The notes: generated by a model from the sequence alone, not told the origin. A stretch of 64,000 nucleotides of DNA from Candidatus Omnitrophota bacterium (GCA_043821285.1 JBDRCZ010000029.1:14959-78958); one strand, 5' to 3'. Numbered from the stretch's first letter, positions 12,001 through 45,104 are shown. Made by a program: numbers and translations.

Positions 12001-15000
12001 GTTGTGCCGGTGTCAGATGCATTATCTGTTGCCCCGGGTAAACTTGGATCATCAATCCCTGTTCCCCATGTAGTATCTCCTGTTGTTTGTCCGCTATGCT
12101 CTGCCATTGCCGCCGCCCATTTTGCTTTATTTTTAGCTACCTGTTCCGGGTCTACTTCATTTCCTGTCGTGTCCCCGCCAATCATCTTACCTTTCGTATC
12201 AAAATAAACTGTAACTCCGTTTAACACCTGCCGGCCGGAACCGTCTTTATTAAAATATATGTCCGCACCGCTCTTATGGTCTTTGGCATAAAAGGCCATG
12301 CCGTCTTCCGGGTCCAAATGGTAAGTCATCCATTTTGCCCCGGTAACATTCATTACAATAAATTCCGGATTACTATAGTCAAACGTGGATATCGTGCCTT
12401 GTTCATGGTCAATTAATTTTAGTCTCCGGTTAATATCATTCGCATCTCTTACATCTACGATAATACATCTACCTGTAACTTCATCCCCGCGGAAAACATT
12501 TATTGCCACGACCCCTTCTTGGCTCCAATCAAACACTGAGGTTGTGCCTTTTTCATGGTCAACCCGCTTAATCGTGCGCTCGGTCTGTGCGTCTTGATAC
12601 TCGGTCATACTAATCGGCAGGGTATTGCTGTCTCCATAGTAAACATCTATTTTAATTACCGCAGGATCACTGTGGTCGTAAATCCAGGTTTGGGTCGGGG
12701 TGATCATCTTTTCCCATTGGTTGGTTGCTCTATTTCTGTAAACCGTAGCAGTTATTTGGCCGGATGGGTTAATAATTGTTGATTGAAGGAGATTGGGATT
12801 AGTGTTGTTGTTATTAACATGAAACATAACATTGCCGTTTTGCTGTATAGTAAGCGGGGCATTACGGAAATCCGTTTGCAGGTTAACTGGCAGGGATAAG
12901 ATTATATTGTTTACTAAGTTAATATTGGAAATTAATGTATTCCTGTAAGTTGTATCATTCAAATTTTGCTGCACCGTAGCAATAGCCCGTTGCAGGTTTT
13001 GTCCCTGGTTTACATTAGTGTTAATCTGTGCGGCTACTACGGCTCTCACTGTCTCCCTGGGCACAAAACTGCCACTAGCAATTGCCGCAAGCTGTGCTGT
13101 GTCATTTACTGCATCATAAGGAGATATATATGCCCCGTTTTGTGCCGCGTTCATAAAAGCACCTTTGGCTGCGGCCCGGGCAATGTCTTGTGCCTGCTGG
13201 CTGTTCGGGTCCATGCCCTGGTTAATCAACTGCCGCATGGTTGCGTCCCAGGCCTGGTCACCAGCATAACCCGCAGTATCTGCTACTGGGATAGTTGCGC
13301 TACCACCACCATTATCATTACTGTCATCATCATCGTATAGATGACCACCGCCTCTTTCAATCTCATCTAATGCTGCTGCTCTCGCTACATAACCCGCTTC
13401 CTCATCTGATAACCCCTGTTGCTTAGCATAGTCCCATGCATCCTCTCCAGCATTTGCCCCTGCTGTTATCTGCATCTCTTGCTGAGTAAGTTTCCGGGAA
13501 TTGCCCTTGGCCTGGTCACTTAATACCTTGCCATCCCATAACCGGTTAAACTCCTTAGTGGTGAGTATCTTTTTCTCGCCATTATCAATAATCGTAACAT
13601 TATTGGAATCTATCCGGATTAATGTTACCCAGTGGCCTTCAAAGTGGATAATCACCGGCCGGTTAGTTTTAATTAAACTCTCCAGGTCCATTTCATAGCC
13701 GTCTAAATTAACCTGATATTTTGTCGCAATCATCTTTAAGGCATACATCGAGGTAAATACGTCTTGTCCGCGGATTACAACTTCTCCTTCCGCTAAAATA
13801 TCCTGCAGGATTAGTTCGTAAGCTAATCTTTGCTTATCCGTATCCTTCCCCTGTATATTAAGGAGAGCAGCTAAGGCATTGACCGCACAGTTAATAATAT
13901 TTATCACCGCATCCTTGGCCCAGTTAACCGCCTTGGAAATAAAGCTCGATACAATCTCACTTGCCGAGTATTTTGCACTAATCATGGCCTGGGCAATTGT
14001 TACCATTGACCGGTCAAGTTGAGTGGCAATCTTTAAGACATCTTCGGCGCTTACCATAAGCGATTTAAGTGCCAGAATAATCTCTTGGTCAGAATAATCT
14101 GCGTTTAACAGGGTGCGGTATATCTGATAATTACTAAAGGGAAGTTTTGCCTCTTTTATTGCGGCAATAATATCTGTGGCTGAGCGGTTGGCAGATTTAA
14201 GCAAGGCCGCTATTTCCACTAAGCCCTTACCCATCTGGGCAAAGCTGGTAATAATCTCGCTGTCCGTATATCCCTGCTGGAACATTTTTAAAACTAAGGC
14301 TTCCTGCCGGTAGTCTAATTTTATTAATGCGTGCATCATTACAAATGCTTCCTGCTGTTTTTGTTCTTCAATATTTTGCTCAGGTTTTACCCCTACCTTT
14401 CCAATTTCTGGCAGTACTTTATCCCGGTGCTGTTCGATTATTTCGCGTTTTGCCGCCTCTTCCTGCAAAAGCGATAATTTCTCCCGGTCTTCTCTTGTCT
14501 GTTCTCTGACTGGTCTTGAGATTAAACTCTCGGCCTCGTGTTCTGAATACCCGGCAGAAACCAATGCCTCATAAATCTCATCGGCAAAATACCCTTGTTT
14601 TAGCGCGGTTATTGCCACATCCCGGGCAGAATTACCGGATTTTTTAAGCAGGGTAATCATTGTGGTGAGGTCATAACCCGCAGCTCCCATACCTTTGATT
14701 GATTCTTTAATAAAACTAAGATTCGAACCAATACCGGCGGCATAATCCCGGGCAATTTTACTTTCGCTGCCCGCTTGCGGAAGAGAGAGTGTGTTTAGGG
14801 GGGAATAAGCGGTTTGGGTTATATCAATTTGTTCGGTTTTTACCCGCGGGGTGTTTTTGGTGAGTTCATCAAGAAGGTCTCTCTGTCCCTGTAGATAGCG
14901 AAAATCCGCAGCCAGGGAAAAATTGCTGTTGGTAAACAAAAATGCCTGAATTAATAATACGGTGATGAATTTAAACCATAATTTCTTTGTTATTATATTC

Positions 15001-15002
15001 AT
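1..15002 (-). CDS. giant multidomain secreted protein, 5' complete, 3' end beyond window (at least 5,000 aa). Order from N-terminus: signal peptide; ~33-aa helical repeats; C39-like peptidase domain (Ser at the Cys position); beta-rich repeats; Gly-rich hydrophobic/tandem-repeat region; SF2 DExH helicase core
   Basis: GGAGG then a 7-nt spacer then ATG at 15000-15002 on the minus strand. N-terminus MNIITKKLWFKFITVLLIQAFLFTNSNFSLAADF is signal-peptide-like. Manual translation of the reverse complement from 15002 down to base 1 met no stop, and the reading frame at base 3 matches the frame set at the ATG. Plus-strand ORFs across this span are all 268 aa or shorter and lie antisense. The minus-strand ORF is absent from the track, as expected if the track lists only frames closed by a stop inside the window. 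Internal motifs: GHWVTLIRIDSNNVTIIDNGEKK (C39 His region, about 13600-13700), VGGGKT (4888-4915), DEFH (4524-4535), QGIGRNRR (3536-3560). Confidence 0.8.
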   Translation of the reverse strand, partial: MNIITKKLWFKFITVLLIQAFLFTNSNFSLAADFRYLQGQRDLLDELTKNTPRVKTEQIDITQTAYSPLNTLSLPQAGSESKIARDYAAGIGSNLSFIKESIKGMGAAGYDLTTMITLLKKSGNSARDVAITALKQGYFADEIYEALVSAGYSEHEAESLISRPVREQTREDREKLSLLQEEAAKREIIEQHRDKVLPEIGKVGVKPEQNIEEQKQQEAFVMMHALIKLDYRQEALVLKMFQQGYTDSEIITSFAQMGKGLVEIAALLKSANRSATDIIAAIKEAKLPFSNYQIYRTLLNADYSDQEIILALKSLMVSAEDVLKIATQLDRSMVTIAQAMISAKYSASEIVSSFISKAVNWAKDAVINIINCAVNALAALLNIQGKDTDKQRLAYELILQDILAEGEVVIRGQDVFTSMYALKMIATKYQVNLDGYEMDLESLIKTNRPVIIHFEGHWVTLIRIDSNNVTIIDNGEKKILTTKEFNRLWDGKVLSDQAKGNSRKLTQQEMQITAGANAGEDAWDYAKQQGLSDEEAGYVARAAALDEIERGGGHLYDDDDSNDNGGGSATIPVADTAGYAGDQAWDATMRQLINQGMDPNSQQAQDIARAAAKGAFMNAAQNGAYISPYDAVNDTAQLAAIASGSFVPRETVRAVVAAQINTNVNQGQNLQRAIATVQQNLNDTTYRNTLISNINLVNNIILSLPVNLQTDFRNAPLTIQQNGNVMFHVNNNNTNPNLLQSTIINPSGQITATVYRNRATNQWEKMITPTQTWIYDHSDPAVIKIDVYYGDSNTLPISMTEYQDAQTERTIKRVDHEKGTTSVFDWSQEGVVAINVFRGDEVTGRCIIVDVRDANDINRRLKLIDHEQGTISTFDYSNPEFIVMNVTGAKWMTYHLDPEDGMAFYAKDHKSGADIYFNKDGSGRQVLNGVTVYFDTKGKMIGGDTTGNEVDPEQVAKNKAKWAAAMAEHSGQTTGDTTWGTGIDDPSLPGATDNASDTGTTDANTAPQTSWWDNFLNGAASAANNFLNLFNNPQQPPSPQENIFVWDNLNKEAQSPLALPNIDLTQVTLDPLLDGARNFVDLFNVPVASEDTLAWSPEEPSFLDIGAMLFAPLTETTIDTDTWDLGYISEDDSIGYIPVTMSAAQVDIPGWEGLKNLFMGPSSLTYELDNMGYIPLLDDETLNNSYFTAGKSSEAPANQSKLSLDEQVSFIHTLNGVTGVVGGIMAQLPQIFGPTNPQTAAPIDPNTGMPAVQNAYLQQTKPPNLPELTIPGLNNLMNFFNQKKEEITNRYDIIQTEDGRVEIKGLDTNDPLVNILYGLRQKLEPLTSNLFTNFPLLQQEQNRISDLQTKLYPTAAEDGPGALELVCGLGPIGEALHNLGLALPKPVKDLMELANEATDNLWKLAIGSGTEDLAREAYEKPQGIAQAWYNLTESAQKVLEGASAAITDAWDKVWGFAEEEGGRDIAELWKDAREKIPVVAGTIDENTGRYITQGEKAGAYAPELDDLTSPDTFLLINIELRGEVEERYKAAIANGDTRNSTTYKKALDELDTLDPTQGIIVLKKAECGDAPAQPGSFWVMHIDIESPLISYDVQKIKFNANSALSYMGLLDETTPEIFSRGRLAELLDAARPAIEVLREECQTRKMIKENMPKTYQSIEELMKQEQNYADVLAQYKDDPTVRALIQEQDDAHFADVNLAKASLETYEALFDVRKINGQVQDAIATYWNSDENKYNNAAVDNYMNKSKQYNDKVNELKTNYGNTYAVWQDLQHARTMYDVRLNLYIDNPGFDLSSEELVRFTPEQLQARSQVVIDYKSARDAYSNKMQELYTNNPTLYNFIQDIQLLADIGAILQAGIEKRIRESAVGTNDTGDYFGGVGEKASLNQQKDRVYVELLQQLAKQGIDIDKFVGMNESDVYIDPRINSDGDNPVAYISSPGEVTPAHVDRVRDISPAAILEKIKDPDARNTAAMIINSNGYAQRIQTLDQNIVLAKARMDFAMTRMQLTHNPMSFVIPLVLPNKGDVLDFRGYSVLDWVDLTTTVPLLFVGGGLLKGGTLLAKGGTLLAKGGTKLTGKFSLAARFAEKLEPIATKIAPVASRVGAASSMGVTAVAAANAASFVVNNRQFLSFEQNIAIFATTTLSVLGLSGANVLLTQTASQGLKGIGLHSLRAGLNLGTVFGNVDMLVNNVLAQQMFSQGEDKGFLGALELSAKSYFGWDYETDDQGRINKDAGFHFDPLNVHTYTKGFIGGFILGGLLGVFGGVANVSQAATAAMSAANPAVSQVRLARVYHLGTTAYQGISNSTRLSRVYRLGESAYKGIYSGTLNSRVIGGLTVASLGGFGNIAWSYLTGGLNASSTPGEFVAAFAKGAFLGILFKWAISPQGMEFVKGIGGHVRDYSRVETAELQTGLLRRSKTPFTGDGINQLALDALEGAIKWPFVSMVMNMASPVWDTGIHVLETGADRIVGRFTGNQELINSSWQFKIGDEYTWFREGTEEQGYLPLDWGSFFTANRAISWFAAAKEGKFMGPMIKVMMRHSDEILSKSPQALTRAKAGEGAYNKARAFIGRPMARIEGSLARGMAANNSFLSIASGLVLEAKSLTFVSGFVTGIERGLQSVRRAGAYADVVSGALTAADIQAAGGFEQALARYSGMAFSEGERFALGWALLFMKPNLNRLNAELLTVREADGKINSEKTVKNFATVRKYGSLREALRQGADLEMQVLERVGELVPVVADYLREQGFVEQQTDMITQHFSRGNLATVGRDIRLGLEYLSEYAADGKKDNLQKFLAHSIWLAEGKPEGRSDIHWELAGKALAGDSSNAEIIFRNSLRRESLGVENSFGAELIKGVNSLNLSELGNLIRAHNEIKPLSDTLREKLGKEVQLVGDQDARRLLDKDVQIGDQVLVEVKLPSGERAPLRVELTEALRMQASMQVFEPYRLEGNITEGLMEVYRINPKDTKYVRHLVDYVQEHRYNARGLEKRLSAEGAETLTQTQRDYYQKQQEYQQAYLKGETQQQLALRQQSISQSLDRVNLEILKDINALIGENPQGFSEATIIGGQALLERNIKQGLTSEKLSTRNISTYIIDAYIRQLDRVADAEISNLIDRVKTARQELEHSPLIREKNELLNKIDNLRDKRRQLAERRDSLENGTGIEAFDNSVRLIDKQIERLNQGINELNKQIDRRVEGILGKQEIQLIAGSARMNMGVEMLIKLYPELEIVSGMRKMGKEIEAVVQGLESGEIEVFVDKETGKVQLQGAEGEIITEFNRDILVEGKISKDAVQERVREITGRGEKMVEGLTGLVLRIVFEKAHADLIEAKKLELKKQGRDVTKEELTGLLDVERSTAQIKMVVELLKENSVYQAVGGGKTLGFIMEMLVRGEIAKALGKSLNQLLVVKTGEAEQTVLAGDKAHGGKGSIKLQELVDIFGYELKDGNKYYTERNEQGLVDVLLSPDKIVVVDQTRLGFLSLSKNQRLCDALAMQDVVRFDEFHIPFSSKVTYITSETSLLLEKEFIEAAFHAKKALDTIFQKEIGVPEKGKIGRAQDIAEARKEEHAYVYRDRGEYCLNGKALEIINSHNIKERTAKAYFDARFAEKQETYDVKDKEIKPVENGNIAEDRVFSDRYFIAALYAKESANGPDIVDRNKLFYSKSSSQSTVAEVLGMFGRQASVLGASGTLETVELMHMLHLGKGVAKITPSTYKDVVTRGFASEPAIIRNIIREIVSSRRNGRGVLILVKDPVMYELVRKFLNDNLGETIELINTSASEKKVGDLANDAQNRIILSNVKGATGIDYIGVVDLVIADGHNWTRSELYQGIGRNRRNVAEGLRRVFYLKGALREKTASGVRLQELKRMQVTYGREVKDQAKELIRNAELMQSEELSAALVHHIREAAYSRGVIEPVKHMMRLATSEQKRDSLEAELRAILDKKDTAEVNLRLSHHARNAEEIIEQTIRGVASSSRELFDLIAKGDYGKAVKSRAALLRDIAESILTSEGYQKIQARRDISFREAVNIREITAVAKHRRFLDRILSEEISHANDVSQNRTVVHVIQQIDQARRKGGEARLTLAEKAKLFKNFDRIVLSNGTRGSPELLSRVAVFLPNDSPVTQVLEDLALQGVSLNTPQQAQTILDFISENIINSSAFADYDTQDKEEVIDFVLGMLNPEVSYDNLIIAATVYNFLTDEAKQEVEESSLLSQTFLSQPEEIAAAMLKPKVYKAPIESWQKRRQVKKDGFALSRVQQFAFTNTLGLSKKAVEQSGQRMSFVEFEARAEALLTQQNPAIATSANVEALAYTLLKLEAAGRQQEGAGLSWAGFKTARTQSAQVAVLGMEDNLRGHRLFAADKQNERAKLNAKRAELNAEIASAWKSGDFQRAIMLSQQIRNKGEKSWLDEVWDKIKGSFVRKLGTDILSLALPLGSLAIILGLVSMPISIPIISSIFSAGSSLPFPMLALSLLSTPLSFGWQAKKMYKYYVQGEAAISVDTLLNQTSKNLGVLPVLNELNLPEEYASRIEALITKQNAAAESKAGPEDNDGETENEPLTLADLGNDQIAQTIARLINPASPSIERLKVRDEQLAGFADFIEQSNLDQVSGTGKDSLKEQLKNRITEARQLPNLLISEHQFENLINELNQYTHQAALDSLDQVVADAKGRIKQYKKDVQEHNDSPQQRQELLGDLLTALVNNQMITEQEKNAFINNPDQKNLAIKPEYKKVHNLLIELSQQPDPAAYLEKIANADDAEAEQMLNLLVELGLRPQGINFDKRVLRVLIADLKEAMQKADQQLEKILNSGLRDPYIKKYARAMRNSTLAHFANNAFDENDQKQENPYQVRLNTLTGYASLTVDELRRDLEQDPEREIIVMTIRNGRVVRSKKERVFKDLEAWLNWRIEGLAQTLSDSDLTVQGRDWVEAEQEFYQAGRERLQEIGVEQPILDQSFNQAREEATAFKNEITNLVEGLIKQHFSMLSDGLKGQLKGEILKALRTVTLSGENSRKARKSDQAA
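8796..8860 (-). repeat. in-frame 21-nt tandem repeat (about 2.5 units) encoding (LLAKGGT)n within the giant gene
   Basis: accacccttagcaagtaaagt / gccgcctttagcaagcaaagt / accgcctttt... on the plus strand. Confidence 0.7.
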
Positions 15003-15022
15003 AATATAGCCTCCAAAAAAAC

Positions 15023-15045
15023 GGTTTTGTAAAATACTTAACCAC
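15023..15045 (-). promoter_or_regulatory. conserved leader motif GTGGTTAAGTATTTTACAAAACC (minus-strand sense), 21 nt upstream of the giant-gene ATG
   Basis: Near-identical motif found at 41624-41646 (upstream of clpC) and 42947-42969 (upstream of mcsB). Each copy sits 21-26 nt 5' of the start codon. Confidence 0.45.
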
Positions 15046-15087
15046 AAAAGTCACAGAGTTACATAAGAATAGAATAGTTATAGAATG

Positions 15088-18991: not shown

Positions 18992-19228
18992 AACTTAAAT
19001 TAGTATAAAACATATTTACTGCAATATTGTTTAATTGATATTCTGACGGAGCAAACAGGATAAAAAAAGACCGCGAGCAGAAAAAAATGACGAATGAAGA
19101 ACGCCAAAAGTAAAAACGCAAAAGAATAAAATTATCACACAAATCACACGAATTACACGAATAAATTAGTAATGAGTATTACGCATAAAAAATAAATAAA
19201 AAATTTTACCACAGAAAAAATACAAAAC

Positions 19229-19318
19229 CAGGCAGGATTAACGGGATAACCCTGATAAAAGGTAATCAGGATAATCATGTAAATCCTGTCAAAAAAATAT
19301 TTATTTGAATTTATTTGT
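19229..19318 (+). repeat. repeat family F copy 1 (caggatt...aatcctg inverted repeat, then ttaatcatgtaaatcctgtcaaaaaaatatttatttgaatt)
   Basis: Aligns to 27641-27735. Lies immediately upstream of the plus-strand ATPase gene. Confidence 0.5.
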
Positions 19319-19354: not shown

Positions 19355-20521
19355 ATGGTATCCTCGAGATGTATGGTAAATAGAACCTTTTGGCAAAAGC
19401 AGATTGAAGCATTATGGAAAGAAAAATCTATCATCTGGCTCTCCGGCATCCGTAGAGCAGGAAAGACCTTTCTTTCTAAAAGTCTTCCGAATATCGAATA
19501 TTTTGACTGCGAATTACCCCGAACTCGCAGAATGTTAGAAGACCCTGAAGGATTTTTGGAAACGTTTAAAGAGAAACGCATTATTCTTGATGAAATTCAT
19601 CGTCTTAAGAATCCTTCAGAACTTCTAAAAATTGCTGCTGACTATTATCCTTCTATACAAGTACTGGCAACCGGCTCCTCTACTTTAGGGGCATCAAGAA
19701 AATTTAAGGACACCCTTACCGGCAGAAAACGCTCCCTTTGGCTAACACCAATGAATCTCAACGACCTCGCTGATTTTAATAATATAAATTTATCTCACCG
19801 CTTTTTACACGGAGGGCTCCCCCCGTTTTTTATGGCGCAAAAATTGCCGGAAAAAGATTTCCAAGAATGGATTGACGCTTACTGGGCAAAAGACATCCAA
19901 GAATTATTTCGCTTGGAACGCCGTTATTCCTTCCAAAGATTTTTTGAACTGCTTATGGCTCAAAGCGGCGGCATTTTTGAGGCTACAAGATTTGCAAAAT
20001 TGTGTGAAGTAAGCCGTACAACAATAACTAATTACCTTAAAGTACTCGAAGCAACCTTTGTTGCTCATGTGATCCGCCCATTCAGTTCCCACCGTCCAAC
20101 AGAAATTGTTTTAGCACCGAAGATCTACGGTTTTGATACTGGGTTCGTCTGTTACCACCGTGGTATAACCACATTGCGTTCTGAAGACATGGGACTCCTC
20201 TGGGAACATATTGTATTAAATGAACTTCAGGCAGAATTACAAACACGCAATATTTACTATTGGCGTGATAAACGCGGTCACGAGCTTGATTTTATTCTTA
20301 TACAAAAAAATAAAATTCCCCTGGCGATTGAATGTAAAAGCACATTAGCAGAAAACAGTATTCGAACACGAAACATCCAAGCCTTCTTAACCCAATACCC
20401 ACAAGCAAAAATATTTTATGTCTGTCCTGACGTCAAACGAGTCTATCAGATAAAACTAAAAACCACAAAAATCACAGTAACCAATCTTCCAACACTGCTC
20501 AAAGCACTAAACAACGCATAA
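19355..20521 (+). CDS. AAA+ ATPase of the COG1373 type (AAA_14 N-domain with DUF4143 C-domain)
   Basis: Walker A GIRRAGKTFL and Walker B ILDEIH. Length of about 390 aa and C-terminal region are typical of this family. Only sizeable plus-strand gene in the window. True start may be the Met at 19373. Confidence 0.75.
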   Translation: MVSSRCMVNRTFWQKQIEALWKEKSIIWLSGIRRAGKTFLSKSLPNIEYFDCELPRTRRMLEDPEGFLETFKEKRIILDEIHRLKNPSELLKIAADYYPSIQVLATGSSTLGASRKFKDTLTGRKRSLWLTPMNLNDLADFNNINLSHRFLHGGLPPFFMAQKLPEKDFQEWIDAYWAKDIQELFRLERRYSFQRFFELLMAQSGGIFEATRFAKLCEVSRTTITNYLKVLEATFVAHVIRPFSSHRPTEIVLAPKIYGFDTGFVCYHRGITTLRSEDMGLLWEHIVLNELQAELQTRNIYYWRDKRGHELDFILIQKNKIPLAIECKSTLAENSIRTRNIQAFLTQYPQAKIFYVCPDVKRVYQIKLKTTKITVTNLPTLLKALNNA

Positions 20522-20709: not shown

Positions 20710-21804
20710 TTATCGATTCTTTAATATCCATTTTTTCCAAAATGGATCCTCGAGTTCAATCTTCCCGCCATTTATTTTTATTAACGTCCCTAAGGCAATT
20801 AATTTACTTACCACGCTGCCCGCGGTACTCGCTGACTTGATCCCATATTTTCTTATAAATTCCTGTGCCGTAGGATGAGAATTACCTGAAACAATCCCAA
20901 TAATAACCTTTCGTTCAGTATTAGTCAAACTGTTCCACCATCTCGAATAATCTGCATGATGTTCTGTTATAATTTGGTCAATAGCCTTATTTATTACCCC
21001 CTTTGTTAAAATCATTTTTTCACTTAGTATGTAGATCTCATGGCACAATTGCTGAGTATAATAAGGGTGGCAATTAGTAAAGCTTAGAATATCGTTTACA
21101 ATTTCACGAGCATCTATTTTTTGCGAAGAAAATCTTTTTATGACAAACTCTAAAAATTCCGCCTTAGGAATTTTATCCAAGTTAATATGACGGCCAAATT
21201 TATAGAAAGGGTTCTTTTTGTTTTGAAATATTTCCCGAATCATGCTCTCTTGACTTCCGATGAAAATATATGTTATGTTTTGATGATATTGAAATACCCC
21301 GCGCATCTTTCGCTCAAGCATCGGAGAAATCCGGCGTATTTCCTGAAATTCATCAAAAACAATTACAATCTGTTTTTTTATGTTTCTGGCAATCGTTTCC
21401 GGAAGTTGAAGGCTATCTGAGAGAAGAGCAGCAATGTTTCTTTTCTCTGTACTGAAGGACACGGAGATTTCATTCGTTTTTGGCTGAATCTGAATATAGG
21501 GCTGTATCTTTAGGCTGGTTAGGTAATGTTTTATCTTTTCAAACTTACTTAATGATAAGGCATTTCGAACATAATAATTAGCCAAGTCTACCTCATCGGC
21601 AATCAACTCCATATTAATCCTGAACCATTTCATCCCGCTGGCTTTCATTGCTTCATTTATAAGACTGCTTTTACCATAGCGGCGTGGGCTCATAAGCACA
21701 ATATGCTGGCCCGCCTTTAGCTCCGCAGCTATTTCTTTTATTTCTTTATCACGATTGGTGAAGTATGCCCCTGTTACGACATTACCAAATCTAAAGGGAT
21801 TCAT
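20710..21804 (-). CDS. AAA+ ATPase of the archaeal ATPase / DUF234 type (COG1672-like)
   Basis: Walker A SPRRYGKSSL and Walker B VIVFDEFQ. About 360 aa with a DUF234-like C-terminus. Confidence 0.7.
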   Translation of the reverse strand: MNPFRFGNVVTGAYFTNRDKEIKEIAAELKAGQHIVLMSPRRYGKSSLINEAMKASGMKWFRINMELIADEVDLANYYVRNALSLSKFEKIKHYLTSLKIQPYIQIQPKTNEISVSFSTEKRNIAALLSDSLQLPETIARNIKKQIVIVFDEFQEIRRISPMLERKMRGVFQYHQNITYIFIGSQESMIREIFQNKKNPFYKFGRHINLDKIPKAEFLEFVIKRFSSQKIDAREIVNDILSFTNCHPYYTQQLCHEIYILSEKMILTKGVINKAIDQIITEHHADYSRWWNSLTNTERKVIIGIVSGNSHPTAQEFIRKYGIKSASTAGSVVSKLIALGTLIKINGGKIELEDPFWKKWILKNR

Positions 21805-22646: not shown

Positions 22647-25600
22647 TTATATTGCTTGGTCTATTGCGAGTACGCGTTGTCTTTGTTCGACAGTTAACAC
22701 ATGGGAAGAAGATATAATTTTGACTGGTAGTGTCCATCGCCTGATTATTACTTCTCCTTCTAAAGGCTCTTGTTCATCGCCTGCAGCCAGATCTTTTTCC
22801 CGCGAATATCCCGAATATCTATCTTCCATTGCCTCAAGAAGAGCCTCAAAATCTCTCTCACGTTCTGTTCTATTTTGTAAATACGTTAAGCTAAATACAA
22901 GCATCTCCCTAAAAGCAGGAATCTGCTCTCCTCGATCCTGTATCGCCATGTTATCAAAAAATCTGTGGATATTTTCTATGGCTGCTCTTGCCGCTTCATG
23001 TCGTCCTCGTCTACTTTTCCCCTTTTCTGCTTCATCATCTTCAAAAACTGCGTTATAATGATGCACAAATTTACGTCGCCACTTTTGTTTTTCTTCTTCC
23101 CTCCCTATTGTTGCAAAGAAAACATATGTGCTTAAATCTGCGATAAATTCTGCAATTTCCAACGCTTGCTCAAAGGAAAAAGTATCACAAAACAAATCTT
23201 CAATATTATGGCCTAATTCATGGGCAAAAACACCAAATAAGTCCCCACCCCAGCTATACTCGCGAATAATATCCCGGCGGCCTATATCAAAATCAGCGTT
23301 CGCAGTACCCCCAAAAAAACTAAATAAAACATCAAGTAAAGCAGTTTTATTCATAATTTTATTTACTATATCATGCATCTGCTCTCTACTTATCTCAATT
23401 TCCAGCTCTAAGCCCTTAAAAATAATAATCCAAGTTGCTATATAATATGCCTTTACTGTCTCATTGAGCCAAATATTATCATCTGGTAATAAATCGCTTG
23501 CCTGCATAGTACGTTTGGCATTTAATAAATTGATAGCTAAATCTAAAACTCTATCTTCCATATCCTCATCAGGTAATAAACCATATACATAAATTCTAAG
23601 TTCACCAGGAAGATCTTCATTGTCAAATATCGTCCTTACCACTTGTTCATATGAATCTCCCTCTATGATATTTTTGTCAATTTGTAAATACTTTGCGAAT
23701 CTCTCTAATACAAACCCCAGTAATTCTTTAGATTTTAATTCTCTACAAATCTCTACAAGTCTATTTAGGACAAGTATGTTACCTCTTTTAGATAAATTTT
23801 GATTGTCAATTATTTTCTTTAATAGAGTAATTGCCTCGGACTCTTCTCTTCTGGCTAACCTTACAACAATATCTATAGCTCCTTCATCGTCCCTATGATC
23901 TAAAAACCATGCTTCTAAGCCCGCAGGCATAAGCTCTCTTAACAAGCTACGGCAAAAAACTTTTGTTTCTTCAGAAGATCCAGAACTCTCTGATATGTCC
24001 ATCAAAAGCTCAACAGCACCATATTTCCCTGAAGACCTGCCCTCTGCAATTTCTTTTAAAAGATTAAGCGCTGGTTCATTTCCTTTTTCTGCCAGTTTTC
24101 TAATTTCCTGATATGCTTCACGCTTATCATTTTCAAGAGCAGGTTTTAATATATTTAGAACAAAGGGTAATAATAAAGATATCTTATCTTTTATATACGA
24201 GTTATCAGAAACAAACCCATCTTCTATAAGTTTTCTAACTACATTATATATTGCTGTATTATGTTTACTAACCGCATCATCTATTCTTACATTATCTCCT
24301 TCTCTAACTATCTCATTCATATTTAGTTCTAATACCGAGATAACAGAAGGTAAAGTTGCAACTGCTAAATCCTTAGCTTGAGCTGTGACCCGGGGGAAAT
24401 CACCTCTAACATAAGGGGCATCTCCTTGTTCTTCAAAGATAACATCTGGACTAACCGCAATATCAACAATAGTATTAATTGCCGTATGTTTTTCCCTTGA
24501 ATCTCCTAACGCTATTTCTTGCAAAATATCCAATCCTTCTTTAATGCCTCGTCTCGCTAATTGTCTTACTACGTTGCCTCCTTCATAAACACCATCTTCA
24601 AAATCAGATTTTAATGATTCTAATATTACAGGTGTCCAAGGCGCTGTAATTTCCAAATCCTCGATTAATATCGCTCTTGCCATACCATATAACATTGTTT
24701 CGATATGACTATCATCTATTGAGGATACTAATTGATAAAATCGTTCTGTTGTTTCTGTTGGGGCAGGGCTATCTTCAAGAGAAATAAAAATACTCACTAC
24801 AACCCACTGAGGTAATCTTAACTCTGCTAATCTAGACTTAAGTCTAGTAAACCATGCTGGAAAATCAGTACTACTATCTCCATTATTCGTCAGTGGAGTT
24901 AAGTTAAACAAAGGAGCAATGATGCCGTTGTACAAAGCATGCAATCCTCCACCCCAGATGAAGATTGATATTTCCGGAAAACGATGTGCGGATGCAAATA
25001 CTAAACCTGTGATAAGTGCAGCGGCAACAGATCGGTGTAGGAATTGTCTCCATGTCTGCTCGTACCATGTTAAATCTGTTTCTGTTGGTATCCCATGAGT
25101 TAAAGTTACTAACAATGCACTTATACCCACAATTATCGGTATGACAGGAATAAAACTACTAAGCCCCATAGCAATACCCGGCAGGAAAATAAGTTCAAGC
25201 CAAGGCGCAATAAAAGTTGAAAATTCCCGAGTATCTGTCCCTTGCCTGGCTCGGTCAAAAGCCACTTTCCAAGGCATCCTTAGAATTTGCGCGGGTTGTT
25301 GGATGTATGAAATATAATGATGTGCCGCAAGACTAGATGTTGCTACTAAAACAGCAGGCTTGTAAGGTAATAAAACCTTTAATATTTCACAAATAAAAGA
25401 ACCAAGCCAAATACCCCCCGCAAAAACATAAGTCCACAAGGGAAGTGTAAGATTAGCCTTTTGCCCCTTATGCCCAGTAGCAGAATTCTGATCGATAATT
25501 TCTTCTTCACTAAAATATTCCCTAAGTTCTTCTAAAGAAAGCAGATCCCCTATATCATTTATTCTTCCCAACACCCAACAATCCTCAAAATATTCCCTGT

Positions 25601-26525
25601 GTTTTTTTGAAGAAAGTACCTCTTCATTATCTTTTCCTTCAATCAGCCAATAAAACTCATTTAGTATTTCACACAGTTTTTCTTGAGCATCAGCAAGCCC
25701 CCTTATCCCCTCTGCACCAATATCTACAAAGTACACATGCGGTTTGCCATTTTTAAATCTTACCCTAAAATTCCATGCAGGAATATCCCAAAAATAAATA
25801 CCTTCTCCACTATCATCCGGCTTTGCAAGTTCATCCATTATTTTCAGAATTTGTCTCCCAACTTCTTTGTAAACTTCTTCACTCGTTACCTTGTACATGG
25901 CAGAATCCAATTCTTCTTCTCCTACAGGGGATGCACAAACGTAATATCTACCGCTGAATTCGTCTTTATCTATAAATAATTCAGGAACATGTTCCTTAAG
26001 AATTTCTGAGTGTTTTTGTCTTTCTGCAATACGTTGGGCTAAATTATAATTCTCGTTGCCTAAACGTAAGCAGTATTCTTTATGGTCTTCATCTTCGACT
26101 CTGTAAACATGTTGAAATTTATCATGATAAATAATTCTAAATATTTCACCATTTATAAAAAATACTCTATTAATTACAAATTGATTATTCTTATAATAAA
26201 CATGAAAATCAGGTAATTCTTTATTAACCCTGTATTCCTTCCTCGCAAGCCCAATTGCTTCTTCCGCTTCAACCCCTATTACAACTCCTTTATCTGTTTT
26301 ATGGCATCTTACAATCTTCGGATTTATATATTGCTGTAATATTACAGGCATTGCCTCAATAACAAGAGCAACATCCTGTCCATCAAGTGCTAACGGAGGG
26401 GCAAGGTGGGTATGCAAGCCTTTTAGGTTACCTCCAGCGGCCAAGGAGATGTCCATGCATAAAAAGGCATTCACCAATATTATCGCGATTAGTTTAAACC
26501 AAATTGTACGTGTCAAATTATTCAT
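22647..26525 (-). CDS. large (1,292 aa) signal-peptide protein with a polytopic TM block carrying CPBP/Abi-like FxxxH and HxxxN motifs, HEAT-like repeats and a C-terminal HExxH (AHELGHN) zincin-like motif
   Basis: N-terminal hydrophobic signal (IWFKLIAIILVNAFLCMDISLAAGG). TM-rich residues about 370-560 contain FASAH and GGGLHALYN. HEAT-like helical repeats span about residues 650-1000. HELGH falls at plus 23222-23236. Confidence 0.75.
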   Translation of the reverse strand: MNNLTRTIWFKLIAIILVNAFLCMDISLAAGGNLKGLHTHLAPPLALDGQDVALVIEAMPVILQQYINPKIVRCHKTDKGVVIGVEAEEAIGLARKEYRVNKELPDFHVYYKNNQFVINRVFFINGEIFRIIYHDKFQHVYRVEDEDHKEYCLRLGNENYNLAQRIAERQKHSEILKEHVPELFIDKDEFSGRYYVCASPVGEEELDSAMYKVTSEEVYKEVGRQILKIMDELAKPDDSGEGIYFWDIPAWNFRVRFKNGKPHVYFVDIGAEGIRGLADAQEKLCEILNEFYWLIEGKDNEEVLSSKKHREYFEDCWVLGRINDIGDLLSLEELREYFSEEEIIDQNSATGHKGQKANLTLPLWTYVFAGGIWLGSFICEILKVLLPYKPAVLVATSSLAAHHYISYIQQPAQILRMPWKVAFDRARQGTDTREFSTFIAPWLELIFLPGIAMGLSSFIPVIPIIVGISALLVTLTHGIPTETDLTWYEQTWRQFLHRSVAAALITGLVFASAHRFPEISIFIWGGGLHALYNGIIAPLFNLTPLTNNGDSSTDFPAWFTRLKSRLAELRLPQWVVVSIFISLEDSPAPTETTERFYQLVSSIDDSHIETMLYGMARAILIEDLEITAPWTPVILESLKSDFEDGVYEGGNVVRQLARRGIKEGLDILQEIALGDSREKHTAINTIVDIAVSPDVIFEEQGDAPYVRGDFPRVTAQAKDLAVATLPSVISVLELNMNEIVREGDNVRIDDAVSKHNTAIYNVVRKLIEDGFVSDNSYIKDKISLLLPFVLNILKPALENDKREAYQEIRKLAEKGNEPALNLLKEIAEGRSSGKYGAVELLMDISESSGSSEETKVFCRSLLRELMPAGLEAWFLDHRDDEGAIDIVVRLARREESEAITLLKKIIDNQNLSKRGNILVLNRLVEICRELKSKELLGFVLERFAKYLQIDKNIIEGDSYEQVVRTIFDNEDLPGELRIYVYGLLPDEDMEDRVLDLAINLLNAKRTMQASDLLPDDNIWLNETVKAYYIATWIIIFKGLELEIEISREQMHDIVNKIMNKTALLDVLFSFFGGTANADFDIGRRDIIREYSWGGDLFGVFAHELGHNIEDLFCDTFSFEQALEIAEFIADLSTYVFFATIGREEEKQKWRRKFVHHYNAVFEDDEAEKGKSRRGRHEAARAAIENIHRFFDNMAIQDRGEQIPAFREMLVFSLTYLQNRTERERDFEALLEAMEDRYSGYSREKDLAAGDEQEPLEGEVIIRRWTLPVKIISSSHVLTVEQRQRVLAIDQAI

Positions 26526-26540
26526 ATGTTATGTACTATT

Positions 26541-26665
26541 AGTTAATTCCAAATGACAAATTTCAAAATCCAAATTAATCTTCAAATAACTCAATCCCAA
26601 AAATCCATGCCCGAGGCGGGTGGAGGAAAAATCAAACATCAAAATGACAATGTAAAATTCAAATA
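26541..26665 (+). repeat. MITE-like family C element (partial/variant) just upstream of the 1,292-aa gene
   Basis: aattccaaatgacaaatttcaaaatccaaat ... cccgaggcgggtggagg ... aaatgacaatgtaaaattcaaat. Confidence 0.45.
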
Positions 26666-26773
26666 TTTTTTCTTTGATTTCTTTCAGTTTTTCTTCGCGA
26701 TCTTCGTGGGCTTCGTGGTTAAAACATCACATTTTTTAAGCTTGAACTATTATGACATAGCTTTGAAGTTTTT

Positions 26774-27043
26774 TTAAATACTGCGATAGGCGGATGGCCG
26801 GAGGGTGATTAAAAGGACCCCAATGCGCTTATCTCTCTTATCTATTTCATAAATTATACGATAATCACCTGCACGGTAACGATATAAAATCTTTTTTACT
26901 TTTAATCGCTTAATGTTTTGTCCCTGAAAAGGATTATTTTCTAAATCTTCAAAACATCTGTTTAGGCGATTGGCTAATTTAGACGAGCAATTTTGATAAA
27001 ATTTCAATGCCTGCGGCAGCAAAATTACCTTAAATTTATCCAC
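26774..27043 (-). CDS. type II toxin of the RelE/ParE family
   Basis: 89 aa, ending RYRAGDYRIIYEIDKRDKRIGVLLITLRP, a typical RelE/ParE C-terminus. Overlaps the upstream antitoxin gene by 8 nt. Confidence 0.75.
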   Translation of the reverse strand: MDKFKVILLPQALKFYQNCSSKLANRLNRCFEDLENNPFQGQNIKRLKVKKILYRYRAGDYRIIYEIDKRDKRIGVLLITLRPSAYRSI

Positions 27044-27269
27044 GCTTTACTTTTCTCCAGTTAGCACCCTTGCCCTTATAAAAAAGTTTGCTCTCCTTCT
27101 CAATGTGAGCTATTTCTTCGCTGGTAAGCGTCTCATCAACTTTTTCTAAAAGCAACTCGCGCACTAAAGCAGAAATAGATTTGTATTCCCTATCGCATAG
27201 ACATTTTATCTTCTCATATAATGAAGCCGGTAACCTTATCAATAACTCTTTATTCATAGTTATAGCCAT
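27036..27269 (-). CDS. antitoxin, likely ribbon-helix-helix/CopG-like
   Basis: 77 aa, LIRLPASLYEKIKCLCDREYKSISALVRELL. Gene order antitoxin then toxin. Confidence 0.6.
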   Translation of the reverse strand: MAITMNKELLIRLPASLYEKIKCLCDREYKSISALVRELLLEKVDETLTSEEIAHIEKESKLFYKGKGANWRKVKRG

Positions 27270-27342: not shown

Positions 27343-27640
27343 GTTTAGATTTCAATACCAGTTGTCATACAGGACGTTCAGACGTCTGTATAAAAATACA
27401 ATTTTGAAATGTTAAAAATTAAAACAATAGTTCATCCTTTTAAAACATATAATCCTTAAACCACAAAGCACCAAGCGCACAAAGTTTTTGTATTCATTCT
27501 TCGTGCCCTTTGTGTCCTTCGTGGTAAATAATTTTCTATTTTTTCTTTTGTCTGAACTGGTACTTCTTTGCGTATCGGATTAATTTATTTTTATTATTTT
27601 CGTCAGATAACGTAAAGCTCGCAGAGAAAATATAAAATTA

Positions 27641-27735
27641 GACAGGATTGACAAGATAAAAAAGGATAAAACTAATCGTGTTAATCATGTAAATCCTGTC
27701 AAAGAAAAAATATTTGAATTTTACATTGTCATTTT
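27641..27735 (+). repeat. repeat family F copy 2
   Basis: gacaggattgacaagataaaaaaggataaaactaatcgtgttaatcatgtaaatcctgtcaaagaaaaaatatttgaatt. Confidence 0.5.
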
Positions 27736-27780
27736 CTTGCCTACCGGCAGGCAGGGATTTTTGATGTTTTCCACCAGAGG

Positions 27781-27838
27781 CGGACCCGCCTCCGGCGGGA
27801 ATTTTGGGATTAAGTTATTAAATGATTCATTTGGATTT
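27781..27838 (+). repeat. MITE-like family C arm downstream of cysS
   Basis: aaatgattcatttggattttgtcatttgacatttgag. Confidence 0.45.
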
Positions 27839-27869
27839 TGTCATTTGACATTTGAGATTAAATAAAGCC

Positions 27870-29312: not shown

Positions 29313-29320
29313 AACTTACT

Positions 29321-29458
29321 AATTCCAAAATCCAAATGAATCTTTAAATATCTGAATCTCAAAAAAAACAATTATAAAATCTTTTTCTATTTGTCTGCCC
29401 GCCGTGATTTTGACAGGTTATTTTTTTGTTGAATGATTAATTTGTCATTTGTCATTTC
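29321..29458 (+). repeat. MITE-like family C element between cysS and gltX
   Basis: aattccaaaatccaaatgaatctttaaatatctgaatctcaaaaaaaacaatt ... gattaatttgtcatttgtcatttc. The internal part matches the 48666-48870 element. Confidence 0.6.
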
Positions 29459-30936
29459 TTAAGCGCTTCCCCCATCCTCTTAAGGCAAACCTCTTTACCC
29501 AAGAGCGGCAGGACAAAAGTAAGCTCCGGGCCTTGCATATCGCCGGTTAAGGCTACGCGTACCGGCAGGTATAAATTCTTTCCTTTTATCCCGGTTGCAG
29601 TTTGCACCTCTTTCATCAGCGCTTTAAAACTTACTACCGTAATCTCTTCCGCACTTTTGCTTAAACCTGATACCAGAGACGTCAATATTGCTTTTGCTTC
29701 TTCATTTTTCAATATATCCTGTGCTTCGTTGTTATAAGTTAGTATTTCCCGAAAAAATATATCTGCGTAAAGCAGGATATCTTTTATTTTTTTTAAACGC
29801 TCCTTGACCGTTAAAACTACTTGTTTAACCCGGTCAAATTTTTCCGCAGCGGTTTTTTCATCCAAAAAACCTGCCGCCACCAAATAAGGAATGCACATCC
29901 GGGTTAACTGTTCAATCTCTAAGCTGCGGATGTAATGTCCGGAAATCCAGTCAAGCTTCGCCGGGTCAAATAAAGCCTGCGACTTATTAAGATCTTCGAC
30001 TGCAAAATCAGAAATTATCTCCGGTTTTGATAAAATTTCCTTTTCTCCTTTTGGCGCCCAGCCGAGAAGCACCAGGTAATTAAACAGCGCCTCTGGTAAA
30101 TATCCCCGTGCACGATAACTATCAATTGAAACCGACTCTACCCGTTTACTAAGTTTTTCTCCGCCTTCGCCCATGGTCATTGACATGTGGGCAAATTGCG
30201 GAATGTGCGCCCCGAGACTTTCAAATATTAAAATATGACGCGGGGTATTCGAGAGGTGGTCTTCGCCTCTTAAAATATGGGTGATCTGCATTAAATAATC
30301 ATCTACACATACGGCAAAATTAAACATCGGATAGCCATCAGATTTCTGCACGACAAAATCTCCAATCACGGATGTATTAAACTGCACTCTCCCCCGTATT
30401 AAATCGTCAATTATAATCTCTCTGTTATCCGGTACCTTGAATCGCAACACCGGTATTCTATTTTCACTGCGGTATTTTTGTTTCTCTTCTTCGGTAAGAT
30501 TACGGCAGCGGTTGTCATAACGTGAAGTCTTACCCTGTTGAAGCAGTTTCTCCCTTCTTTCCTCCAGTTCTTCTGCGCGGCAGTAACACTCATATAATCT
30601 GCCGCGGTGCTTTAATTTATCCAGGTATTGCTTGTAAATATCAATCCGCTGTGACTGGACATAAGGGGCAAATTCTCCACCAATGTCCGGACCTTCATCC
30701 CAATCAATGCCCAGCCACTTCAAATCCGCGAAAATCTCCTGCACAAAATTTTTCTGTGAACGTTCTATATCAGTATCTTCAATTCTCAATATAAAACGCC
30801 CCTGCGCTTTGCGGGCAAATATCCAGTTAAACAGCGCTGTCCTGGCATTACCAATATGTAATCTGCCCGTGGGACTGGGGGCAAAACGTACTCGAACCAC
30901 GCTACCTCCGGTAGAATGACAAATGTCAAATTCCAA
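29452..30936 (-). CDS. gltX: glutamate--tRNA ligase. The tracked start is a TTG lying inside a repeat arm; the true start is probably near 30898 (GTG, VVRVRFAPSPTGRLHIG).
   Basis: HIGNARTALFNW and KLSKR motifs; 494 aa. Confidence 0.9.
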   Translation of the reverse strand: MEFDICHSTGGSVVRVRFAPSPTGRLHIGNARTALFNWIFARKAQGRFILRIEDTDIERSQKNFVQEIFADLKWLGIDWDEGPDIGGEFAPYVQSQRIDIYKQYLDKLKHRGRLYECYCRAEELEERREKLLQQGKTSRYDNRCRNLTEEEKQKYRSENRIPVLRFKVPDNREIIIDDLIRGRVQFNTSVIGDFVVQKSDGYPMFNFAVCVDDYLMQITHILRGEDHLSNTPRHILIFESLGAHIPQFAHMSMTMGEGGEKLSKRVESVSIDSYRARGYLPEALFNYLVLLGWAPKGEKEILSKPEIISDFAVEDLNKSQALFDPAKLDWISGHYIRSLEIEQLTRMCIPYLVAAGFLDEKTAAEKFDRVKQVVLTVKERLKKIKDILLYADIFFREILTYNNEAQDILKNEEAKAILTSLVSGLSKSAEEITVVSFKALMKEVQTATGIKGKNLYLPVRVALTGDMQGPELTFVLPLLGKEVCLKRMGEALKK

Positions 30937-31183
30937 ATAAGAAAACCGTCAAGCGGTTACGGTTACGTAAGTTTTTGTATTGTGTATTGAGTCGTGCGTA
31001 TTGCGGTTTTTATGGTATAGGAAAGTATACTCTTATACCCTTACGGGCACAAGTAAAACACTTTCCTAACCACTGAAAATCGCAGATTGTCGTCTTTTTA
31101 TTTTTTATGCTCAATACTCGATGCTCAATACGAGTATTATTACCTTAACCGTTACCGAATAAGCAGTGCGTAATACGCAATAC

Positions 31184-33384: not shown

Positions 33385-33490
33385 TTTAATTTCACATGTC
33401 AAATCTCAAATGAATTACTAAATAAAACAATCAAAAAATTAAAAGATTTGAAGATTAGAAGATTCATTTGGATTTTGGATTTTGTCATTA
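33385..33490 (+). repeat. MITE-like family C element between yacL and radA; its right arm supplies the last ~17 codons of the radA ORF
   Basis: atttcacatgtcaaatctcaaatgaatt ... gattcatttggattttggattttgtcatt. The radA C-terminal tail NDKIQNPNESSNLQIF is encoded by the arm. Confidence 0.55.
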
Positions 33491-43310: not shown

Positions 43311-43850
43311 CTACTTATTTTCTTTCTTTTCCATCTCTTTTATTTTATCGCGTATTTTTGCCGCCTCCTCAAATGCCTCGGTCTGAATTGCCTTCTGTAG
43401 TCTAATTTGCATATCCTGAAGCTCTTTTCTAACCTTAAACTCAGGCCCGCTTTTTGTTGGAGATTTTCCGGCATGCTGACTTGCGCCGTGTATCCTTTTA
43501 AATAACGGTTCCAGACTCTGCTTAAACGTTGTATAACACTCACTGCAGCCAAAACGGCCAATCCGCTTAAAGTCCTCGTAGGTAAGTTTACAATTTGGGC
43601 ATTTAATTACCTGTTTTCTTCCTGGTTTTCCTGCTGGTACGGCTAAATCAACCAGTCCGGATAAAAGATCCTGCAAAGCAAACGGCTGTCCTAACCCGGC
43701 GACGCCTTTTTCCCGTGCGCATTCTTCGCAAAGATGCAATTCAGTCATCTGATCATTGATTATTTCCGTAAGATGCACGGAAGCCTGTTTCTTCCCGCAA
43801 ATATCACAGACCATATTTAACCTCCGGTTAACTAAAATTCCAAAATTCAA
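43311..43850 (-). CDS. mcsA: McsA (zinc-finger and UVR-motif activator of McsB)
   Basis: CDICGKK...CEEC and CPNC...CSEC zinc fingers plus a UvrB/C motif (LQKAIQTEAFEEAAKIRDKIKEME). True start is likely the later Met (MVCDICG). Confidence 0.8.
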   Translation of the reverse strand: MNFGILVNRRLNMVCDICGKKQASVHLTEIINDQMTELHLCEECAREKGVAGLGQPFALQDLLSGLVDLAVPAGKPGRKQVIKCPNCKLTYEDFKRIGRFGCSECYTTFKQSLEPLFKRIHGASQHAGKSPTKSGPEFKVRKELQDMQIRLQKAIQTEAFEEAAKIRDKIKEMEKKENK

Positions 43851-43953
43851 ATGTCAAAATCTAAATGAATCTTCTAATCTTCAAATCCTTTAATTTTTTT
43901 ATTGTTTTATTTAGTAATTCATTTGAAATTTGGATTTTGACATTTGTCATTCT
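43834..43953 (+). repeat. MITE-like family C element between mcsA and the aminotransferase gene
   Basis: aaaattccaaaattcaaatgtcaaaatctaaatgaatcttc ... catttgaaatttggattttgacatttgtcattc. Confidence 0.6.
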
Positions 43954-44857: not shown

Positions 44858-44865
44858 TTACAAAT

Positions 44866-45104
44866 TCCAAATGTCAAATTCCAAATAAATAACTTAACAA
44901 AAAAATGACAAATAAAAGAAACATTATACAACAAAATGTTTTTCTCTGTGTAATTAAATAAAAAAATTCCTTCGGAATCTTTTTATCCATTTGAAAACCG
45001 TAGGTTTTCAAACTTTCCCTCCAAAAGATCACCCTCTATCAAGCTATAGGGAATAATCAAGTTTAATGATTCATTTAGATTTTGGCATTTGTAATTTGTC
45101 ATTT
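44866..45104 (+). repeat. composite element: family C inverted-repeat arms (44866-44900 and 45060-45104) enclosing a partial family A module (44958-45024)
   Basis: attacaaattccaaatgtcaaattccaaat ... ataaaaaaattccttcggaatctttttatccatttgaaaaccgtaggttttcaaactttccctcc ... gattcatttagattttggcatttgtaatttgtcatttttt. Confidence 0.5.

Follow-up and report, generated by a model that had tools for sequence, protein, structure and literature searches.

The gene described here occupies positions 22647 to 26525 on the minus strand of a 64,000-nucleotide stretch of Candidatus Omnitrophota DNA (GCA_043821285.1, JBDRCZ010000029.1:14959-78958; this whole stretch is called the window below), and its product is a one-off mosaic of Omnitrophota-restricted modules that are otherwise found in large or giant proteins; the combination of modules was found nowhere else in the databases searched. 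From its N-terminus, the 1,292-residue protein joins a signal-like segment, a predicted atypical kinase-like domain, a membrane block with a CPBP-like core, a helical solenoid, and a C-terminal module that residue conservation and weak profile matches to zinc peptidases identify as a putative new gluzincin-type zinc-peptidase family. Each of the modules can be placed, with differing degrees of certainty, in a known superfamily, and two of the three enzyme-like modules carry altered catalytic motifs. The features of the gene and its product, in window coordinates and all on the minus strand, are as follows.

22647..26525, minus strand: complete coding sequence, corresponding to protein ABH952_03000 of the metagenome-assembled genome (NCBI), where it is annotated from V18.
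26436..26525, minus strand: signal peptide or signal anchor, residues 1-30, from an n-h-c layout recognised by eye.
25626..26168, minus strand: predicted atypical protein-kinase-like domain, residues 120-300, from an AlphaFold2 (AF2) model and Foldseek, with relatives P0006, P0011, P0013 and P0015.
24891..25460, minus strand: polytopic membrane block, residues 356-545, with five to six hydrophobic helices.
24906..25223, minus strand: divergent CPBP (Rce1/Abi)-like four-helix core, residues 435-540, from hhalign.
23496..24803, minus strand: predicted all-alpha ARM/HEAT-like solenoid, residues 575-1010, from AF2 secondary structure and the predicted local distance difference test (pLDDT).
22806..23495, minus strand: putative gluzincin-type metallopeptidase module, residues 1011-1240, from an alignment of 11 sequences.
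23208-23222, minus strand: HELGH, residues 1102-1106, the sole HExxH of the protein.
23136-23150, minus strand: EFIAD, residues 1126-1130.
22998-23000, minus strand: H1176.

All of the evidence is computational; the reading frame, the conservation of its motifs and its domain-level relationships are direct results of computation. A phmmer search with residues 61-1260, run exhaustively against 1.84 billion protein cluster representatives, found no full-length relative and only 15 other clusters, each of which shares a single module with the target. These clusters fall into three separate sets, covering residues 818-1234 (10 clusters), 123-299 (four clusters), and 430-519 (one cluster, the 3,005-residue protein P0016). 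The relatives range from 307 to 6,545 residues in length, and their additional domains include receiver, ThiS, HD, DUF1152 and glucosamine-6-phosphate isomerase domains; all relatives with a named taxon come from Candidatus Omnitrophota, and the kinase-like, CPBP-like and gluzincin families appear to be confined to this phylum. A word-indexed protein search returned only the target itself, both with the target protein and with the C-terminal alignment as query; in genome and metagenome contigs, a pattern scan based on the peptidase alignment yielded no relatives, and the corresponding scan with the membrane-block alignment recovered the P0016 contig only. A hand-made DNA pattern for the membrane-block motif APWLEL..LPGIA had no match in species-representative genomes, and tblastn baits for CPBP and M78 genes had none in plasmid and phage collections.

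The C-terminal module was aligned across the target and ten other clusters; at 22-36% identity among these 11 sequences, ten residues are invariant (W1019, E1022, K1025, M1058, H1102, E1103, G1105, H1106, E1126, and H1176). An original prediction, made from the sequence of this stretch alone, had taken the string AHELGHN for a zincin HExxH signature. HExxH occurs in 6% of shuffles of the target protein, and the CPBP-type motifs FxxxH and HxxxN occur in 78% and 73%, so that without conservation such bare motifs carry no weight; HELGH is significant because it is conserved in the relatives. The zincin reading is borne out by the invariance, in all 11 sequences, of the metal ligands and of the downstream glutamate E1126, which sits in an ExxAD motif (ExxAY in some members) 20 residues past H1106, and by the identity of the weak Pfam and PDB matches at the HExxH site, which are to zinc peptidases of the M48, M78 and thermolysin types. 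The three motif strings on which the original prediction relied (FASAH, GGGLHALYN, and AHELGHN) are all present in the protein, but AHELGHN lies at window positions 23205-23225; the positions first assigned to it, 23222-23236, translate to LVFLP.

The Pfam models for HEAT repeats, CPBP proteins and peptidases that the original prediction had named do not match the target protein, even at E <= 10; it is the relatives of the peptidase module that give M48 matches. Weak matches to Peptidase_M48 appear in 5 of the 11 family members, with P0009 exceeding the curated M48 cut-off (24.7 bits vs. 20.3), and M78 matches in two of the 11; NCBIfam returned only noise for this family. The family profile, searched against PDB sequences, produced 34 weak matches (E 0.3-2), and in 33 of these the HExxH helix is aligned to a zinc peptidase; in the top match, CapP, the E..ADL segment was aligned as well as HExxH. 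Alignment with hhalign to the E. coli M48 proteases HtpX, BepA, LoiP and YcaL reached a probability of 58% (P = 1e-4) over only 28 columns. An AlphaFold model of 733 residues (mean pLDDT 72; mostly 85-95 at residues 790-1160, and lower after the HExxH helix) predicts two short strands, followed by the HExxH helix (1093-1112) and by a helix (1118-1139) that bears E1126; pLDDT is about 74-97 through the HExxH helix, with the helix itself at about 90, and 61-89 over the following helix. The invariant ligands and the ExxAD glutamate, the M48-leaning matches in Pfam, PDB and hhalign searches, and the compatible secondary structure are the reasons for assigning the module to a new, putative gluzincin-type family.

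This predicted family shares with M48 (HtpX, LoiP, BepA, YcaL, Ste24) and M78 (ImmA/IrrE, CapP) the HExxH helix preceded by hydrophobic residues, the invariant ExxAD glutamate on the next helix, and a further invariant histidine. The four E. coli M48 proteases also have an invariant ExxAD, but it follows 55 residues after the motif in LoiP, compared to 20 in the target. Thermolysin has a His-to-Glu spacing of 20 residues and an acidic residue four positions further on, and resembles the target module in both respects. The invariant W-x2-E-x2-K helix of the target and its fused solenoid are without counterpart in M48 and M78; the target itself matches no peptidase model, and its similarity to M48 is limited to the 28 columns around HExxH.

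The solenoid that precedes the peptidase module was modelled by AF2 entirely as helical hairpins; its best Foldseek matches in the PDB, all at E 1.5e-3 or weaker, are beta-catenin, karyopherins, CAND1, and designed toroids. Its C-terminal part, from about residue 818, is conserved jointly with the peptidase module. The original prediction had described this region as HEAT/PBS-lyase-like repeats; the helical, ARM/HEAT-like character holds in the model, but the Pfam models HEAT, HEAT_2 and HEAT_PBS did not match the solenoid region even at E <= 10, and the safe label for the predicted structure is an ARM/HEAT-like solenoid of no specific repeat family.

Upstream of the solenoid, the hydrophobic block spans about residues 360-540 and contains the strings FASAH (510-514) and GGGLHALYN (525-533), in which two of the three signature motifs of CPBP/Abi intramembrane proteases had originally been seen. 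Its only relative, P0016, is 35% identical and shares with the target the segment APWLEL..LPGIA, a histidine in L(T/A)LHG, and the motif G.GL.H...N; E444, H477, H529 and N533 are kept. A reference set of 32 genuine PF02517 proteins, gathered with a consensus bait, has as its invariants P, E, E, R, G, F, H, H, and N. When the membrane-block profile was aligned to this set with hhalign (probability 40.7%, P = 2.9e-4), the three CPBP motifs came into register: APWLELIFLPG (440-450, with P441, E444 and G450) aligned to APIaEEllFRG, H477 to the motif-2 histidine, and H529xxxN533 to motif 3; the distance from E444 to H477, 33 residues, is the same as in the reference CPBP protein P0017. The hhalign score of 29.7 lies about 5.6 standard deviations above that of 200 window-preserving shuffles (14.5 +/- 2.7, maximum 24.7), and the reversed-sequence control scored 17.0.

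The CPBP motifs of the original prediction were thus partly reassigned. HALYN corresponds to motif 3, with H529 and N533 aligned to the CPBP H...N, and gains its significance from conservation in the relative. FASAH was rejected as motif 2, since its histidine (H514) is not conserved in P0016 and is unmatched in the CPBP profile alignment, which marks it as a chance motif; the motif-2 histidine is H477, which is conserved, with Val or Met at the Phe position. A clean EExxxR had not been obvious in the original prediction; in both the target and P0016 the motif is degenerate, with one glutamate (E444) kept, the second replaced by leucine (L445) and the arginine by proline (P449), whereas the second Glu and the Arg are invariant in 32 of 32 true CPBP proteins. 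The Pfam CPBP model (PF02517) did not match even at E <= 10. By sequence comparison the block may be called CPBP-like, while membership in PF02517 is not established. Its likeness to the CPBP/Abi/Rce1 proteins consists of A-P-x-x-E...G, a histidine 33 residues after the glutamate, HxxxN, and a four-helix hydrophobic core; it differs from them in the lost second Glu and Arg of EExxxR, in the Val or Met that replaces the Phe of FxxxH, in having only two known members, and in being embedded in a 1,292-residue multidomain protein in place of a free-standing protein of about 230 residues.

The N-terminus reads MNNLTRTIWFK-LIAIILVNAFLCM-DISLAAG, with R6 and K11 in the n-region, the 13-residue hydrophobic core LIAIILVNAFLCM as h-region, and DISLAA as c-region; by eye, this is a Sec-type n-h-c layout, as the original prediction of a signal peptide had it, and the small residues SLA-A at positions -3/-1 fit a Sec signal. 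AF2 places a helix at residues 3-30. Among the four relatives of the kinase-like domain, two (P0013 and P0015) have a signal-like start just upstream of the domain and a third has one far upstream.

The roughly 330 residues after the signal had been passed over as a "soluble domain", in which a predicted protein-kinase-like fold was missed. From only five sequences (the target and its four relatives), AF2 modelled the N-domain with pLDDT 72-93 at residues 120-275, and a Foldseek search against the PDB gave 191 matches at E <= 1e-3 (best E 2.7e-6, probability 1.00); the best 50 of these 191 are all protein kinases, with the eukaryotic-type kinase TTK/Mps1 among the best fold matches. In the predicted topology, an N-lobe built of beta-sheet is followed by helices that resemble alphaC and alphaE, by the catalytic-loop Asp, a pair of strands, and a D-x-G motif. 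Invariant in the family are R154 at the position of the beta3 Lys, D247 at that of the catalytic-loop Asp, and D268 at that of the DFG Asp, with N or Q at 252; D268 lies in FVDIGxEG, of which D268-x-G-x-E-G is conserved, and residues 240-275 look, by eye, like the catalytic loop of a kinase with a DFG-like motif behind it. No glycine-rich loop was found in the domain. It is read, from the model, as a predicted atypical kinase-like domain, and it is possibly a pseudokinase. Compared to protein kinases, the core is compact (about 180 residues), has Arg for the beta3 Lys, lacks the glycine-rich loop, and stands behind an export signal, where ATP is normally not available.

Two loci of relatives carry kinase-like or peptidase-like motifs of their own. 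In P0006 (locus L004, 3-10760), annotated as a partial protein of 920 residues although its frame has no stop for at least 3,586 codons, the kinase-like module is C-terminal, and HEITH, another HExxH motif, lies about 40 residues upstream of the module; here the kinase-like fold is joined to an HExxH motif for a second time, independently of the target. The closest relative of the peptidase module, P0002 (locus L001), lies within a same-strand run of genes for 3,034, 1,055, 1,477 and 2,763 amino acids, and the 1,477-residue product is weakly matched by YrbL-PhoP_reg, a kinase-like family; this product was rejected as a relative of the N-domain, since the target's kinase-like-domain profile does not detect it.

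For topology, catalytic competence, substrate and biological role, we infer the following arrangement. The protein would be an Omnitrophota-specific mosaic of the inner membrane, anchored through its N-terminal Sec-type signal or anchor and the membrane block. The signal would place the atypical kinase-like domain outside the cytoplasm, where it may act as a sensor or regulator across the membrane; the last four helices of the membrane block would form a divergent CPBP-like core that keeps one Glu, two His and one Asn, and that could be either a second, intramembrane hydrolytic site or a mere transducing anchor; and the solenoid would bind a protein substrate or partner and offer it to the HExxH site, which probably faces the cytoplasm. 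With the kinase-like domain exported by the signal and five helices behind it, the loops contain 11 Lys and Arg residues inside and one outside; under this model, residues 408-434 and the C-terminal half would be cytoplasmic. Four relatives of the peptidase module have neither a signal nor a membrane segment ahead of it, and receiver or HD domains are found in two more; a cytoplasmic position of the module agrees with this. By analogy, a membrane-tethered zinc endopeptidase with an exported sensor-like domain, working in the manner of BlaR1, is our tentative interpretation, to which we give somewhat less than an even chance.

BlaR1 and MecR1 (M56) are signal-transducing membrane zinc proteases that combine an extracytoplasmic sensor, membrane helices, and a gluzincin domain. 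The likeness is one of function: the target would unite in one chain an extracytoplasmic sensor-like domain, membrane helices, and a predicted cytoplasmic gluzincin. There is no detectable sequence relationship and the domain order is opposite; the sensor is kinase-like in the target and of the penicillin-binding fold in BlaR1/MecR1, and the target adds the solenoid and the CPBP-like core.

As a caveat, several observations weigh against this interpretation. Searches of Pfam, NCBIfam, PADLOC and PDB sequences with the whole protein and with four pieces of it gave nothing usable, and Foldseek with the whole 733-residue model found solenoids only. For the kinase-like domain, the TM-scores of the kinase matches are modest (0.42-0.45 relative to the target structures), no Pfam kinase family matched any of the five N-domain sequences, the N-domain profile found only noise and no kinase among PDB sequences, and the invariant R154 in place of the beta3 Lys is a change that usually inactivates kinases. 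The membrane block is represented by few sequences, P0016 being its only relative, and its AF2 model is unreliable (pLDDT 30-56). A simple insertion-energy test finds clear membrane segments only at residues 12-30, 361-379 and 458-476, which makes the number of helices uncertain; the lowest Hessa-type insertion energies are those of residues 458-476 (1.29) and of the N-terminal segment (1.36). Finally, the peptidase module stands behind a signal-like N-terminus in P0005, P0012 and P0014, where it could be extracellular.

This last observation also bears on a different reading, according to which the protein, akin to the giant Omnitrophota proteins but small, is a surface-exposed or secreted factor for interaction with host or prey; its solenoid and zinc protease would point away from the cell and would break down or bind the envelope proteins of a second one, and the membrane block would be only an anchor. 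The modules recur in P0005 (6,545 residues), P0016 (3,005 residues), P0007, P0012, and the P0006 frame of at least 3,586 codons. HEAT repeats in giant Omnitrophota genes are reported only from predicted extracellular regions, and a role in predation has been proposed (10.1101/2023.11.21.568195). In long Omnitrophota proteins, signal-plus-membrane and membrane-anchored cytoplasmic layouts are both common, the former accounting for 39% (10.64898/2026.06.07.730766). In the window itself, a same-strand gene of this giant type, 7.6 kb from the target, contains a C39 peptidase domain. Against an outward-facing protease stand the positive-inside count, which puts the C-terminal half in the cytoplasm, and the peptidase relatives already mentioned, four without signal or membrane segment and others with cytoplasmic receiver and HD domains; moreover, the giant reading frame shares no sequence with the target. 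We regard a surface role, the main rival reading, as unlikely.

The giant reading frame (window 3-15050, minus strand) comprises at least 5,016 codons and extends past the first position of the window; almost its only recognisable part is a Peptidase_C39 domain about 433-511 codons from its upstream end (E = 6.6e-10), and the frame fits published descriptions of giant Omnitrophota genes. Paralogy of the target with this or any other reading frame of the window was considered and rejected, as no sequence is shared. With giant Omnitrophota proteins in general ('Archaeovorins' and others), the target has in common phylum-restricted modules, solenoid scaffolding, peptidase content, and a signal-plus-membrane-helix layout, and its modules are found inside proteins of 3,000-6,500 residues; it differs in its length of 1,292 residues, in lacking the Pfam domains that define those classes, and in a module set that was not previously described.

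The altered catalytic motifs invite a further reading, in which the protein is largely a pseudoenzyme scaffold: the kinase-like domain and the CPBP-like core would both be dead, the protein would organise its partners there at the membrane, with the zincin as the only site that might be active. R154, where kinases need Lys, and the missing glycine-rich loop are consistent with this view, as are L445 and P449, which replace the second Glu and the Arg of EExxxR in both membrane-block members. On the other hand, D247, N/Q252 and D268 are still conserved, and E444, H477, H529 and N533 are kept at 35% overall identity, which argues for selection on active-site positions. Such a scaffold, which overlaps with both the BlaR1-like and the surface-factor interpretations, seems to us decidedly unlikely. 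More ambitiously, the protein could be a single-polypeptide transmembrane signalling device unique to Omnitrophota, in which the exported kinase-like domain would sense or modify something outside and control an intramembrane Rce1/CPBP-like site together with a solenoid-guided cytoplasmic gluzincin; we consider this quite improbable, but if true, one bacterial protein would unite relatives of both eukaryotic types of CAAX protease, the Ste24/M48-like and the Rce1-like, with a kinase fold.

The gene itself, a reading frame of 1,292 codons plus stop that begins with ATG, was judged to be real. The one identical sequence in the databases, a hypothetical protein of 1,275 residues from a Candidatus Omnitrophota metagenome-assembled genome, starts at V18 (GTG); this start would cut the signal-like N-terminus in half. 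The ATG at position 26525 adds 17 residues (window 26474-26525) and completes a canonical signal n-region and h-region. An in-frame TAA two codons 5' of this ATG makes M1 the earliest possible start. No Shine-Dalgarno sequence was found at any candidate start of the gene, whereas the neighbouring antitoxin gene has AGGAG; promoter and terminator scans did no better than shuffles.

The gene lies on the chromosome in a stretch of low G+C content (0.34-0.37, compared to about 0.40-0.44), with a ROK-family gene on one side and cysS, gltX, ispF and ispD, all housekeeping genes, on the other. The same stretch also carries a DUF4143/AAA_14 ATPase, an ATPase_2 protein, and a ParE/RHH toxin-antitoxin pair. 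The DUF4143/AAA_14 ATPase (window 19355-20521, plus strand) is a match (E = 1.5e-54) to PDC-S01, a candidate defence family in PADLOC, and adjoins the ATPase_2/AAA_35-type protein (window 20710-21804, minus strand); the two may constitute a small cluster with a defence or accessory function next to the target gene. A direct repeat of 102 nucleotides, 78% identical between its copies (window 19212-19313 and 27622-27721), flanks an 8.4-kb low-G+C segment in which the target gene lies together with both ATPase genes and the toxin-antitoxin pair; its copies may delimit an island inserted between the ROK gene and cysS.

The ParE/RHH pair (window 26774-27269) lies on the same strand as the target gene, which follows 248 nucleotides downstream of ParE, and the original prediction had drawn from this adjacency a role in processing or immunity. 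With its CPBP-like motifs in the membrane core, the protein would then be an Abi/CPBP-type immunity or processing protein tied functionally to the pair. However, the pair has a strong promoter-like site of its own and is bracketed by two inverted copies of a repeat of about 165 nucleotides, 73% identical and including a perfect 37-nucleotide stretch; for these reasons it is an independent, repeat-flanked cassette that says nothing about the function of the target. No toxin-antitoxin pair occurs in any of the three neighbourhoods of module relatives that were examined; these loci share nothing, and the lack of a conserved neighbourhood suggests a single-gene unit. The target protein matched no PADLOC defence model and has no relatives in phage and plasmid collections. 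The inference from the adjacent pair was abandoned, and a functional tie between the two is very improbable indeed. The copies of the repeat, which belongs to an intergenic family with a AAATGACAAAT(T/G)TCAAAATCCAAAT-like core scattered over many spacers of the window, are located as follows.

26539-26700 and 27699-27865: the two copies that bracket the ParE/RHH pair, inverted relative to each other.
About 29318-29365, 30915-30938, 33454-33489, 43836-43951, 44856-44900, 45062-45098 and 48719-48867: short copies of the intergenic repeat.

Omnitrophota are ultra-small, uncultured and probably host-dependent bacteria, and their huge multidomain membrane proteins are largely uninterpretable. Since the biological role of the protein described here is speculative, the value of the analysis is limited to annotation and the generation of hypotheses, and it answers no open question. 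Three of the four modules represent unannotated families, namely a kinase-like fold with Arg for Lys, a two-protein CPBP-like core, and a solenoid-linked putative gluzincin (11 clusters), for which the candidate active-site residues E1103 and E1126, E444 and H477, and R154, D247 and D268 are offered as testable. The protein is a compact version of the domain pool of the giant proteins, of a size that is workable in experiments, and naming its modules provides handles for annotating stretches of the giant proteins of Omnitrophota.

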